DNA of 32,000 bases from Delftia acidovorans NBRC 14950 (GCF_001598795.1 NZ_BCZP01000018.1:30001-62000); one strand, 5' to 3'. Positions 12,661-19,525 are shown, numbered from the stretch's first letter. Program-made: numbers and translations. Notes: generated by a model not told the origin, from the letters alone.

Positions 12661-12682
12661 CCATCGTCGATTCCGACGAATG
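12661..12682. promoter_or_regulatory. Palindrome site 1: ccCATCGTCGattcCGACGAAtg (candidate operator or RNA hairpin)
   Basis: The inverted-repeat core is TCGTCG-N4-CGACGA. It lies between the crotonase stop (12711) and the SBP ATG (12580), and matches site 2 at 20 of 22 positions. Confidence 0.55.
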
Positions 12683-12710
12683 CATGTGCGGGCGCAGCAA
12701 GGTGCGGCGG

Positions 12711-13568
12711 TCAGCCCGGCTGGCGTGGCGCGAAGACGGGTTCGCGCTTTTGCATGAAGGCCTGCACGCCCTCCATGAAGGCCGGCGCGCCCACCAGCTC
12801 GCGCTGGCGTTCAGCCTCGTAGTGAAGCTGCTGCTCCAGCGTGGAAGCGGCTGCGTGGTCCAGCGCGCGGCGGGCTTCCAGCACGGCACCGGCCGGCAGC
12901 CGCGCCAGGCGTGCGGCCGTGGCCAGGGCCTGCTCGCGCAGGGCCTCGTCGTCCACGCAGGCCCAGACCAGGCCCCAGTCGGCGGCCTGCTGCGCGCCAA
13001 GCCTGTCGCCCAGCAGGGACAGGCCCAGGGCGCGCGCACGGCCCAGCCGGCGCTCGATGAACCAGGTGGTGCCCAGGTCCGGCACGATGCCCAGGCGCGG
13101 CAGGAAAGGCAGGTAGAAGTAGGCCGAGCGCGCCGCCAGCGCCACGTCGCCGGCCAGGGCCAGGCCCACGCCGGCCCCGGCTGCCGCGCCGTTGATGGCG
13201 CAGACCACGGGCACGGGCAACTGCTGCAGGTCCAGGATGAGGCGGTTGGACAGCTGCTGCATGTTGTCGGCCGTCTGCGCGCCCAGCGTGCGGCCATCGG
13301 CCTGGGCCCCGCCTTGTGCCCCGCCTTGTGCGCCGCCCATGGACGACAGGTCCGCGCCCACGCAAAAACCCCGGCCCTCGGCGGTGAGCACCAGGGCGCG
13401 TAGGGTGGTGTCCTCGCGCACCTCGGCTAGCAGTTCGCGCAGCCGCAGCTGCAAGGGCCTGCCCAGCGGATTCATGCGGGCGCTGTCCTGGAGGACGATG
13501 AGGGCGATCTCGCCGCTGTCGCCGTTGTTGCCGTGGCGTTCCATGCGGACGGCCGGACTGGAATTCAT
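12711..13568 (-). CDS. Enoyl-CoA hydratase/isomerase (crotonase family) with a GGAQ-repeat insertion
   Basis: This is the C-terminal 285 aa of track ORF 12711..14105(-). It starts MNSSPAVRMERHG, preceded by AGGAG. Signatures LTAEGRGFCVGADL and CAINGAAAGAGVGLALAGDVA are present. Confidence 0.88.
   Translation of the reverse strand: MNSSPAVRMERHGNNGDSGEIALIVLQDSARMNPLGRPLQLRLRELLAEVREDTTLRALVLTAEGRGFCVGADLSSMGGAQGGAQGGAQADGRTLGAQTADNMQQLSNRLILDLQQLPVPVVCAINGAAAGAGVGLALAGDVALAARSAYFYLPFLPRLGIVPDLGTTWFIERRLGRARALGLSLLGDRLGAQQAADWGLVWACVDDEALREQALATAARLARLPAGAVLEARRALDHAAASTLEQQLHYEAERQRELVGAPAFMEGVQAFMQKREPVFAPRQPG
13307..13330. repeat. 12-nt in-frame tandem repeat (ccccgccttgtg x2 plus degenerate flanks) encoding GGAQGGAQGGAQ
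   Basis: Two perfect copies lie at 13307-13318 and 13319-13330. The protein reads GADLSSMGGAQGGAQGGAQADG. Confidence 0.7.
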
Positions 13569-13597
13569 GGGGGACTCCTGTGGGTGGGGATGGAAAG

Positions 13598-14638
13598 TCA
13601 GGTGCGCGGCCGCTGCCGGGGCAGGCGACGGCCCGGCCGGCCCGGCCGGCCCAGTCGGTGCAGCAGGCCCATCACGCCGCCGGGCATGGCAAACATGAAG
13701 ACGATGAGCACGGTGCCGTAGACGGCCCAGGGCGCGGCCTTGGAGACCTGCTCGGCCAGCCCCGGGATGAACATGATGAACAGGGCGCCGAACAGCGCGC
13801 CCCACAGCGTTCCCACGCCGCCCACCACCACGCCCACCAGCAGCGAAATGGACAGGAACATGGTGAAGGAGTCGGGCGCCACGAACTGCACGGCAATGGC
13901 CGACAGCGCGCCGCCCACGCCCGTGTAGCCGGCCGAAATCGCAAAGGCCATGGACTTGCAGTGCGCGTTGTCCACACCCATGGCCTCGGCCGCCATGGCG
14001 TGGTCGCGGATGGCGCGCAGCGCCAGGCCGCTGCCGCTGTCTATGAGGTTGCGCGCCATCCAGAACAGCAGCGCCGCCACGGCCAATGCATAGAGGTAGA
14101 ACCACTGGTCGGCATCCAGCGGCAGGCCCCAGGGCGCCTCGGGCTTGGTCAGCACGATGCCGCCCACGCCGCCGGTCCAGGCCTCCAGGTGGCGGTACTT
14201 GAGCAGCTGGGGCATGGCCACGCCCAGCGCAAAGGTGGCCAGCGCCAGGTACAGCCCTTCCAACCTGAGCGCGGGCCGCCCGAACAGGTAGCCCGCCGCC
14301 AGGCTCACCAGGCCCGCTGCAGGCACGGCCAGCCAGTAGGCCAGGCCCGCGCGGTCCATCAGGATGCCGGCCGCATAGGCGCCTATGGCGAAGAAGGCGC
14401 CATGGCCCAGCGAGATCTGGCCGCTGTAGCCCGTGAGGATGTTCAGCCCCACCAGGGCCACGGCATAGGCCAGCACCATGGTGGCCTGGAACAGCTGGTA
14501 GCCCTTGGCCACGAAGACCAGCGAGCAGGCCGCCAGCGCCAGCGTCGCGATCAGTACCGTGCCCAGGGGCAGGGGGCGGCGCGCGCTGGTGGCGGCGACC
14601 AGTGCGTCAGACGAGGAGGCGGATCGTGTGGACATCAT
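13598..14638 (-). CDS. livM: Branched-chain-type (HAAT) ABC transporter permease
   Basis: Track ORF 13598..14809(-). The plausible start is the ATG-ATG pair at 14638/14635 (MMSTRSASSS...), after GGAGAACA. The rest is a multi-span hydrophobic LivM-like sequence. The symbol denotes the family only; the substrate is unknown. Confidence 0.85.
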   Translation of the reverse strand: MMSTRSASSSDALVAATSARRPLPLGTVLIATLALAACSLVFVAKGYQLFQATMVLAYAVALVGLNILTGYSGQISLGHGAFFAIGAYAAGILMDRAGLAYWLAVPAAGLVSLAAGYLFGRPALRLEGLYLALATFALGVAMPQLLKYRHLEAWTGGVGGIVLTKPEAPWGLPLDADQWFYLYALAVAALLFWMARNLIDSGSGLALRAIRDHAMAAEAMGVDNAHCKSMAFAISAGYTGVGGALSAIAVQFVAPDSFTMFLSISLLVGVVVGGVGTLWGALFGALFIMFIPGLAEQVSKAAPWAVYGTVLIVFMFAMPGGVMGLLHRLGRPGRPGRRLPRQRPRT

Positions 14639-14812
14639 TGTTCTCCAGGGCGTTTGGCACAAAACTGGCGTGGCCCAAAAGCGAGGGAAACCGAGCAAGG
14701 GCCTACGCCGGCCGCGCCGCCCCGCCGCGAGGGTGTCGTCCCCCTCCTGCGTAGCGAGAGAGGGGGCGCCGTGCAACGGGAAGCGGCGTCCGCCGCTCAG
14801 GGGGGGCATTGT
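14639..14812. repeat. 174-nt GC-rich REP-like spacer between livH and livM
   Basis: CCCCCTC (14740-14746) pairs with GAGGGGG (14760-14766), and there is a near-palindrome GCGGCG-TC-CGCCGC (14783-14796). It loosely resembles the reverse complement of the 27600-27670 element (GCG.AGC.AG...GGGGGC.CC.GT). Confidence 0.4.
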
Positions 14813-18505: not shown

Positions 18506-18527
18506 GCCCGGCCGGCGCGGGCCGGGC
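18506..18527 (-). other. 8-bp GC hairpin adjacent to palindrome site 3
   Basis: gcccggcc (18506-18513), loop ggcgcg, ggccgggc (18520-18527). Confidence 0.4.
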
Positions 18528-18546
18528 ATCGTCGCAAGCGACGATT
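18527..18546. promoter_or_regulatory. Palindrome site 3: CATCGTCGcaagCGACGATt
   Basis: The extended perfect inverted repeat is ATCGTCGC-AA-GCGACGAT. It lies between the SDR stop (18600) and the thiolase ATG (18466). Confidence 0.55.
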
Positions 18547-18599
18547 CCGGCCAGGGAAAACGCGGGGACGGTGCCTGCCGTGAGGCCTGGGCTGTACGC

Positions 18600-19382
18600 C
18601 TAACGCGGCGCCATGCGGATGGCGCCGTCCAGGCGCACGCATTCGCCGTTGAAGTAGCCGTTGGTGATCATGGTCTCGGCCAGGTGGGCGTATTCGTCGG
18701 GCTGGCCCAGCCGCTTGGGGAAGGGCACGGAGGCGGCCAGTGCCGCCTTCACGTTGTCGGGCGCACCCTGCAGCAGCGGCGTGTCGAAGATGCCGGGCAG
18801 GATGGTGTTCACGCGGATGCCCTCGCCCATGAGGTCGCGCGCGATGGGCAGGGTCATGCCCGTGATGCCGGCCTTGCTGGCCGAGTAGCTGGCCTGGCCC
18901 ATCTGCCCGTCCTGCGCCGCCACCGAGGCGGTGTTGACGATGGCGCCGCGCTCGCCGTCGGCCAGCGGCTCCAGCGTGAGCATGCCCGCGGCCGACTTGG
19001 CGATGCAGCGGAAGGTGCCCACCAGGTTGATCTGGATGATGCGGTCGAAATTGGCCACGGGCAGGTGCCGGATCTCGCCCGTGGCCTTGTCGCGGCTGGC
19101 CGTCTTGACGGCATTGCCCGTGCCCGCGCAGTTGACCAGGATGCGCTCCTGCCCGTGGGCCGCGCGCGCCTGGGCAAAGCCCGCGTCCACGCTGGCCTCG
19201 TCGGTCACGTCCACGCGGCAGAACAGGCCGCCTGTCTCGCGCGCCAGCGCCTGCCCGGCCGTCTCGTTGAGGTCGAACAGGGCGACGCGCACGCCTTTTG
19301 CGGCCAGGCGGCGCGCGGTGGCCGCGCCCAGGCCCGATGCCCCGCCCGTGACGACGGCGCTGATGCTTGCGTCAAGCTGCAT
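18600..19382 (-). CDS. SDR 3-hydroxyacyl-CoA dehydrogenase (HSD17B10 / 3-hydroxy-2-methylbutyryl-CoA dehydrogenase-like)
   Basis: Track ORF 18600..19478(-). The start is at the 33rd codon (MQLDASISAVVTGGASGLG), preceded by AAGGAGA. It has TGxxxGxG and the catalytic YSASK. Confidence 0.9.
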   Translation of the reverse strand: MQLDASISAVVTGGASGLGAATARRLAAKGVRVALFDLNETAGQALARETGGLFCRVDVTDEASVDAGFAQARAAHGQERILVNCAGTGNAVKTASRDKATGEIRHLPVANFDRIIQINLVGTFRCIAKSAAGMLTLEPLADGERGAIVNTASVAAQDGQMGQASYSASKAGITGMTLPIARDLMGEGIRVNTILPGIFDTPLLQGAPDNVKAALAASVPFPKRLGQPDEYAHLAETMITNGYFNGECVRLDGAIRMAPR

Positions 19383-19503
19383 GTGAAGGTCTCCTTGGTT
19401 GGTGCGTTGGCGGCACGCCGTTGCCTGTCGCCTTGGATCGGGACAGGGGGCGGTTCGCCACCTATGATCTGCCTTCAAGTCTAGGAATCGCCCCGTCTTG
19501 CCG

Positions 19504-19525
19504 CCATCGTCGAAACCGACGAAAG
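19504..19525. promoter_or_regulatory. Palindrome site 2: ccCATCGTCGaaacCGACGAAag, in the divergent regulator/operon control region
   Basis: It has the same TCGTCG-N4-CGACGA core as sites 1 and 3. It lies 39 nt upstream of the regulator ATG (19564) and 122 nt upstream of the first operon ATG (19382). Confidence 0.55.

Follow-up and report, generated by a model that had tools for sequence, protein, structure and literature searches.

Within a 32,000-nt stretch of Delftia acidovorans NBRC 14950 (GCF_001598795.1 NZ_BCZP01000018.1:30001-62000; hereafter the window, 70% G+C), one palindrome occurs three times in a cluster of 15 genes that lies divergent to a gene for a MalT-type LAL regulator. The three palindromes are probably DNA activator elements at three sigma-70-type promoters, to which a dimer of the LAL regulator would bind, co-inducing a predicted organic-acid cluster. 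The first-pass annotation of this DNA had proposed one operator shared by a main and two internal promoters and bound by a dimeric helix-turn-helix (HTH) protein, with the adjacent LuxR-type regulator as the candidate. This proposal, with binding as a prediction, was supported by the comparative evidence, namely conservation of the motif before the same genes across genera, its lock at 22-24 nt to a -10-like hexamer, the LAL protein as the sole conserved transcription factor, and the invariance of its HTH.

Three palindromes in the window

The pattern TCGTCGNNNNCGACGA (TCGTCG-N4-CGACGA) had exactly three matches in the window, at 12664-12679, 18529-18544, and 19507-19522, against an expectation of 0.01 per window, and none of 100 dinucleotide-preserving shuffles gave three. 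All three copies shared a 5' CA extension (CATCGTCG...CGACGA). Allowing up to two mismatches added only the same three sites read on the reverse strand and degenerate hits at other positions. The pattern search thus returned the three intergenic junctions of the cluster at which the palindrome had been noticed by eye, with no other pair in the window, and the distances given at that time were correct. Site 1 lies 81 nt upstream of the ATG of the substrate-binding protein (SBP) gene (12580), site 3 lies 61 nt upstream of the thiolase ATG (18466), and site 2 lies in the divergent region between the SDR ATG (19382, minus strand) and the LAL ATG (19564, plus strand). The operon-strand readings were TTTCGTCGgtttCGACGATGG for site 2, AATCGTCGcttgCGACGATGC for site 3, and ATTCGTCGgaatCGACGATGG for site 1, whose centre, GAAT, is reversed relative to the consensus nTTn of the transcribed strand. 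The features concerned are as follows.

19507..19522, minus strand: site 2, palindrome TCGTCGgtttCGACGA (operon strand); exact match, also conserved before SDR1 orthologues across many genera; predicted to hold the LAL dimer at the main promoter, which precedes the SDR gene
19478..19483, minus strand: -10-like hexamer TAGACT after site 2; 23-nt spacing, with T-A---T columns invariant in a 20-promoter alignment
18529..18544, minus strand: site 3, palindrome TCGTCGcttgCGACGA, at the SDR-thiolase junction; exact match, with sites before thiolase genes elsewhere; marks a predicted internal promoter for the thiolase gene and the genes downstream
18500..18505, minus strand: -10-like hexamer CACCAT after site 3; 23-nt spacing
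12664..12679, minus strand: site 1, palindrome TCGTCGgaatCGACGA, at the enoyl-CoA hydratase-SBP junction; exact match, with SBP equivalents in loci L001, L002, L027, and L071 of the comparison set; marks a predicted internal promoter for the SBP gene and the genes downstream
12635..12640, minus strand: -10-like hexamer TACCAT after site 1; 23-nt spacing
4042..19382, minus strand: target cluster of 15 genes, from domain and family annotation and codon-position G+C
19564..22338, plus strand: MalT-type LAL regulator, 924 amino acids, divergent to the cluster; Pfam, NCBIfam, and PDB matches

Promoter geometry

The spacing from the palindrome to the -10-like hexamer was exactly 23 nt at all three sites. 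Transcription starts were predicted by placing them 7 nt past the hexamer, which would put them near 19471 (site 2), 18493 (site 3), and 12628 (site 1) on the minus strand. With these predicted starts, the palindrome occupies -51 to -36, centred at about -43.5. The hexamers at the -35 position were poor (TGGCGG, TGCCCG, and TGGGCG), and the arm centres of TCGTC-N6-GACGA were about 10-11 bp apart, which is about one helical turn. With a centre near -43.5 and poor -35 hexamers, the arrangement would have the geometry of an activator-dependent (class II) sigma-70 promoter. The palindromes would be better described as activator sites near -43.5 than as a generic 'operator'.

On the plus strand, a sigma-70-like promoter, GGGACA-17-TATGAT (19440-19468), points to the LAL gene. 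If this promoter is used, site 2 would lie in the LAL leader at about +32 to +47, and binding there could autoregulate LAL. A symmetric second promoter running from site 2 toward LAL was also considered, with CACAGT 23 nt off on the plus strand as its hexamer. It was not conserved even in D. tsuruhatensis and would leave LAL a leader of about 6 nt, and it was set aside as a probable chance match.

Two further structures were observed in the leader regions. The predicted 89-nt SDR leader (19383-19471, minus strand) had a folding energy of -30.9 kcal/mol (z = -2.9 in comparison with shuffles), and its central hairpin, CCTGTC...GACAGG, was shared with D. tsuruhatensis and D. acidovorans and absent in Delftia sp. 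PS-11 and other genera. On the plus strand, a terminator-like hairpin with a T run was present at 12597-12613; it is antisense to the SBP leader and falls past the predicted internal start but short of the SBP start codon.

Conservation of the motif and its phasing

The comparison set consisted of 80 genome loci encoding close LAL relatives, each with 10-kb flanks (1.55 Mb in total). It spanned Delftia, Pseudacidovorax, Xenophilus, Xylophilus, Aquabacterium, Variovorax, Pseudorhodoferax, Curvibacter, Rhizobacter, Burkholderia singularis, and a metagenome-assembled genome (MAG) of 55% G+C. The motif was present in most of the 80 loci. Its conserved core was TCGTC-N6-GACGA(T), with the logo tTCGTCgnTTccGACGATG from 162 distinct sites, in all of which the core was invariant. 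The palindrome with six-base arms described at first therefore holds for the three sites of the window, but only five bases per arm are conserved across orthologous loci; the perfect 6-7 bp arms are a peculiarity of Delftia. The shorter string CGTC-N6-GACGA occurred 405 times in these loci, compared with about 22 times in first-order Markov simulations.

The -10-like box kept its distance from the motif. Hexamers of the form [TC]AnnnT peaked at 22, 23, and 24 nt past the motif, with 57, 118, and 22 cases, respectively (mode 23), compared with 1-9 at other offsets. Coupling to such a box was seen at 176 of the 243 unique motif locations (72%). The other 67 included several recognisable sites with an atypical flank, and others that fell within conserved coding sequence. 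In a MAFFT alignment of 20 promoters from different genera, the only invariant columns were CGTC, GACGAT, and the T-A---T of the -10 box, and no second conserved block was found upstream of the palindrome.

The genes behind the motif were also conserved. Wherever SDR1 heads the operon, the motif stood upstream of it (Pseudacidovorax, Xenophilus, Xylophilus, Aquabacterium, Variovorax, Curvibacter, Rhizobacter, and several MAGs). Sites preceded the thiolase gene in Pseudacidovorax, Xenophilus, and locus L075, and, with an atypical flank, in Variovorax, Curvibacter, and Rhizobacter; in related loci they also preceded SBP, ligase, and CoA-transferase genes. In Variovorax, a CoA-transferase/ligase/dehydrogenase operon lies on the other side of the LAL gene and has its own site 53-78 nt before the start codon. 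Footprinting of the junctions in related clusters, which the first-pass annotation had suggested as a check, thus found the motif kept before the same genes in many genera and not absent from the orthologous clusters.

The reversed orientation of the centre, as in site 1, was also seen in other genera (L027, 1073-1087; L038, 4910-4924), where the site is shared by a divergent pair of promoters, both having a -10 box 22-24 nt away. This suggests that the SBP promoter may descend from a bidirectional arrangement.

Differences among Delftia strains were also observed. D. acidovorans MMO-42 (L008) has neither the ABC-transporter/SBP cassette nor site 1, and its hydratase is only 75% identical to that of the window; the window and D. 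tsuruhatensis have both cassette and site. Because MMO-42 is without both, the transporter cassette with its own site looks like an insertion. In Delftia sp. PS-11 (L002, 8958 and 9948), a near-identical promoter module (palindrome, 23 nt, TAGACT) occurs twice, about 1 kb apart, with one copy adjoining the LAL gene and the other directly before SDR1, which looks like a possible promoter duplication around an inserted segment.

RNA hairpins and generic repeats

The first-pass annotation had named RNA hairpins of 6-8 bp as its alternative, acting in processing, stability, or attenuation of the polycistronic transcript. Each site can indeed form a hairpin of 6-8 bp (-8 to -9 kcal/mol), and sites 1 and 3 would be transcribed by read-through, as no minus-strand terminator precedes them. 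However, the arms varied without compensation. At arm positions outside the fixed core, the inner pair was complementary in 77 of the 162 sites, compared with 82 expected from independent columns, and the flanking pairs in 41 (53 expected) and 60 (76 expected). Mismatched arms such as TCGTCG..GGACGA and CGTCC..CGACGA were found in many orthologous sites. The folding z-scores of two junctions were only -1.6 and -1.5, and Rfam gave no match on the whole window. A terminator scan of the operon strand found none at the three positions, where the palindromes are followed by TGG or TGC and not by a T run. Moreover, transcription is predicted to start only downstream of site 2 and of many orthologous sites, and in several loci one palindrome serves two divergent promoters. 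The uncompensated arm variation, the weak z-scores, the lack of an Rfam match or terminator, and the position of site 2 before the predicted operon start together make a role in RNA very unlikely.

A still smaller chance was given to a generic palindrome of the repetitive extragenic palindromic (REP) kind, or a chance or coding-driven pattern without specific function. The bare 15-base pattern TTCGTCGNNNNCGACGATG did have at least 120 matches in unrelated metagenome contigs. Among the matches listed, however, a -10-like hexamer at 22-24 nt was present in 6 of 119 and a central TT/AA in 9 of 119, whereas in the LAL loci the same pattern was -10-coupled in 26 of 27 cases and had the central TT/AA in all 27. 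None of the metagenome matches listed had a regulon gene downstream or an LAL gene nearby, and almost all were chance matches, mostly in coding DNA. The distribution was also not that of REP elements or bacterial interspersed mosaic elements (BIME), in that the window holds three copies only, and the promoter-coupled 72% of locations in the LAL loci lie 5' of genes of one functional set. Across metagenomes the bare string is not unique; the specific feature is the composite of the motif, its centre, and a -10 box in phase, placed before genes of acyl-CoA metabolism.

The predicted binding protein

In at least 57 of the 80 loci, a site was found no more than 200 nt before the LAL start, and about nine further loci were missed in this count solely through inaccurate extrapolation of the N-terminus. 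Clustering of the confident open reading frames (ORFs) of the 80 loci showed that LAL was the only transcription factor family present throughout. None of the TetR, IclR, LysR, and MarR families was present in even a quarter of the loci, and an AraC-like family was present in 11. Among the annotated genes of the window, no second transcription factor gene was found besides LAL. The HTH segment GYSNxAMAEKLFVSDSTVRTHLRNIN was practically invariant across the 80 loci, as was the motif. For this HTH family, the standard mode of binding is by a dimer of GerE domains on a dyad of 16-18 bp.

LAL and its sites were also found together in distant hosts, with three sites in Burkholderia singularis and six in the MAG of 55% G+C, which is labelled Sulfuricaulis (L071). 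In the latter, LAL is accompanied by an SDR-thiolase-ABC operon, and all six sites, of which two are apparently bidirectional, keep the same phasing, which suggests that the regulator may have been transferred horizontally together with its sites. On this comparative evidence, the neighbouring MalT/LuxR-type LAL protein most likely binds the sites.

The main alternative for the binding protein is FadP. The sites could be true promoter-linked operators bound by a factor encoded elsewhere, either FadP or a response regulator with a GerE HTH, with LAL as a mere neighbour. FadP is a TetR-family regulator predicted to control fatty-acid degradation, and its regulons, of about 18 genes per genome, were predicted in Comamonadaceae by comparative genomics (PMC5343134); in addition, some LAL loci are without nearby sites. 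However, no TetR or other non-LAL transcription factor family was conserved in the 80 loci or in the window, and the sites track the LAL gene through rearrangements and into Burkholderia singularis and the MAG. The predicted position of the sites, strictly phased at -51 to -36 and next to a poor -35, is an activator geometry that is not typical of TetR repressors, and the motif of a CrbR-type response regulator, ACGAC-N4-GTCG, is a different sequence. A factor encoded elsewhere is therefore considered unlikely.

We consider it less likely again that LAL binds the sites but represses, by occluding the -35 region or by acting as a roadblock in its own leader at site 2. The site does abut the -35 position, and the plus-strand GGGACA-17-TATGAT promoter would put site 2 in the LAL leader. 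Against repression, the -35 hexamers are poor, the 22-24 nt phasing to the -10 box is fixed across genera, as if the protein must contact RNA polymerase, and characterised MalT/LAL regulators are activators.

Several points weigh against activation by LAL at these sites. Since neither the HTH nor the motif varies, LAL and the site show no covariation that would link them. The -10 hexamers of both internal promoters (CACCAT and TACCAT) are weak. E. coli MalT, the best-characterised relative, binds asymmetric decamers (GGGGAKGAGG) in arrays and not a single palindrome. FadP was set apart by gene content and site geometry and not by its motif. Finally, 7-10 LAL loci (for example L063, L066, L069, L072, and L078) have no nearby site. 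The same invariant HTH is encoded at L063, L064, L066, L067, L069, L072, and L078, where the gene context is different and the available flanks contain neither a site nor a regulon gene; these site-free loci show that the site goes with the target promoters and not with the regulator gene itself.

Genes downstream of the sites

For the -10-coupled sites in the 80 LAL loci, the first gene after each site was counted by type.

SDR1: 48 sites
CoA-transferase: 30 sites
fadB-like multifunctional enzyme: 19 sites
Ligase (LIG1 type): 13 sites
Second acyl-CoA dehydrogenase type (ACAD-like): 13 sites
Thiolase: 12 sites
Nitroreductase-like protein: 11 sites
Second thiolase type: 7 sites
NMO-type oxidoreductase: 7 sites
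Bug-type binding protein: 5 sites
Liv-type binding protein: 5 sites

As annotated, these genes appear to form one coherent functional set for the uptake, CoA activation, and beta-oxidation-type breakdown of organic acids.

The gene cluster and the LAL regulator

Real genes in the window were marked by codon-position G+C. For transport, the cluster encodes two ABC ATPases and two permeases of the Liv type together with a Liv-type SBP. Its enzymes are SDR1 and a 2,4-dienoyl-CoA-reductase-like SDR, a thiolase, two enoyl-CoA hydratases, two acyl-CoA ligases (one of them close to DmdB), a family III CoA-transferase, and an acyl-CoA dehydrogenase. The ligase close to DmdB scored 805 bits with the NCBIfam model for 3-(methylthio)propionyl-CoA ligase, just under the cut-off of 822. 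The NCBIfam names for the cluster enzymes were near-threshold or generic and did not single out a substrate.

The LAL protein is homologous to E. coli MalT along its whole length. It consists of a STAND nucleoside triphosphatase (NTPase) with the P-loop GFGKTT, a MalT-like TPR region, and a C-terminal GerE/LuxR HTH at residues ~861-918 (nt 22144-22317). Pfam matched TPR_MalT (2.9e-36) and GerE (4.2e-16), and a PDB match was 8bob (MalT; 2.7e-42). The score with the NCBIfam MalT equivalog model was 324 bits, under the cut-off of 537. The protein was 96% identical to its D. acidovorans counterpart and 92% identical to that of D. tsuruhatensis. Its homologues number in the thousands, mainly in Comamonadaceae, and relatives were found in at least 426 genome stretches, mostly from Comamonadaceae and other Burkholderiales.

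Two details of gene structure were also noted. The ORFs of the ABC ATPases overlap by 86 nt (16400-16485), and the real start of the downstream gene is probably after the first ATG. The ORF at 29256-30746 (plus strand) combines a MafB19-like/cytidine deaminase domain with an alpha/beta-hydrolase domain and shares 86 nt with the end of the binding-protein gene before it; this would be an unusual fusion or else an ORF whose start has been wrongly extended.

Proposed mechanism

In the mechanism that we propose, each palindrome would serve as upstream activator element for a sigma-70-type promoter whose -35 region is weak. The STAND module of LAL would be activated by ATP and an effector, and the activated protein would place a dimer of its C-terminal GerE/LuxR HTH domains on TCGTC-N6-GACGA(T), abutting the -35 position. 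The bound dimer would then recruit RNA polymerase in the manner of a class II activator. In this way, the promoters before the SDR, thiolase, and SBP genes would co-induce the 15-gene cluster, whose presumed role is the uptake, CoA activation, and beta-oxidation-type breakdown of a short or medium-chain organic acid.

Proteobacteria commonly encode LAL (MalT-type) regulators, few of which have a known DNA site or regulon. On balance, although with less confidence than in the activator sites of the window, we favour the wider view that a widespread MalT-type STAND regulator uses a single palindrome near -43.5 rather than MalT-style arrays, and so defines a regulon that is horizontally mobile, serves the uptake and beta-oxidation of organic acids, and operates alongside the predicted FadP system, with an acid or an acyl-CoA as the effector. 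The analysis gives a precise candidate operator, TCGTC-N6-GACGA(T) 23 nt before the -10 box, together with predicted promoter positions and target genes, for one large orthologous group. In Delftia, Variovorax, and related bacteria, this could be used to annotate a poorly understood catabolic pathway from its regulon, and it offers a candidate inducible promoter/regulator pair for engineering these bacteria; the operator definition also eases the design of binding and reporter experiments. It is a regulon prediction for an unstudied LAL regulator and not a new principle of regulation.

Comparison with known systems

In its proposed mechanism the site resembles the lux box and tra box of LuxR and TraR, with a dyad of 16-20 bp, a predicted GerE-type HTH dimer, predicted sigma-70 activation, and a regulator gene adjoining the target operon. 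LuxR and TraR sites lie at class II promoters, centred at about -42 to -44, where they overlap or abut a weak -35. The sites described here likewise form a dyad and have a conserved GerE-HTH regulator nearby; they would be centred at about -43.5 if transcription begins at the predicted starts. However, their sequence is unrelated, the regulator is a 924-residue STAND/MalT-type ATPase and not an acyl-homoserine-lactone receptor, and the predicted regulon is catabolic.

E. coli MalT shares the NTPase, the TPR-like sensor, and the GerE HTH with the LAL protein, which is presumably an ATP- and effector-dependent activator too. Unlike MalT, the LAL protein would use one palindrome per promoter, and it scored under the MalT equivalog cut-off. 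A MalT-box search of the 32-kb window gave three one-mismatch hits, compared with 6.75 expected, and none of them was in the three junctions.

The ACTU motif of CrbR/ErdR, a LuxR-family response regulator, is an imperfect inverted repeat that occupies -52 to -36 and directly precedes the RpoD promoter; it was shown experimentally to be required for activation and is conserved before several carboxylate-utilisation genes (PMC5715377). The geometry is the same as that predicted for the window sites (-51 to -36), but the arms of the CrbR motif are everted (ACGAC-N4-GTCG, compared with TCGTC-N6-GACGA here). In addition, CrbR is a two-component response regulator with an acetate utilisation regulon in Gammaproteobacteria, unlike the regulator of the LAL cluster.

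The FadP regulon is predicted in the same taxa (Burkholderiales and Comamonadaceae) and has a functionally overlapping gene set (acyl-CoA dehydrogenases, thiolases, and hydratases). However, it is a TetR repressor, there is no conserved TetR gene at the LAL loci, and the site geometry here is activator-like. The literature that was searched, on LAL/MalT-like regulators in Comamonadaceae, on the motif, and on FadP, yielded no description of this LAL group or its site. The predicted site and regulon thus appear to be previously undescribed, while the mechanism would be of a known kind, that of a LuxR/GerE dimer site at a class II promoter.

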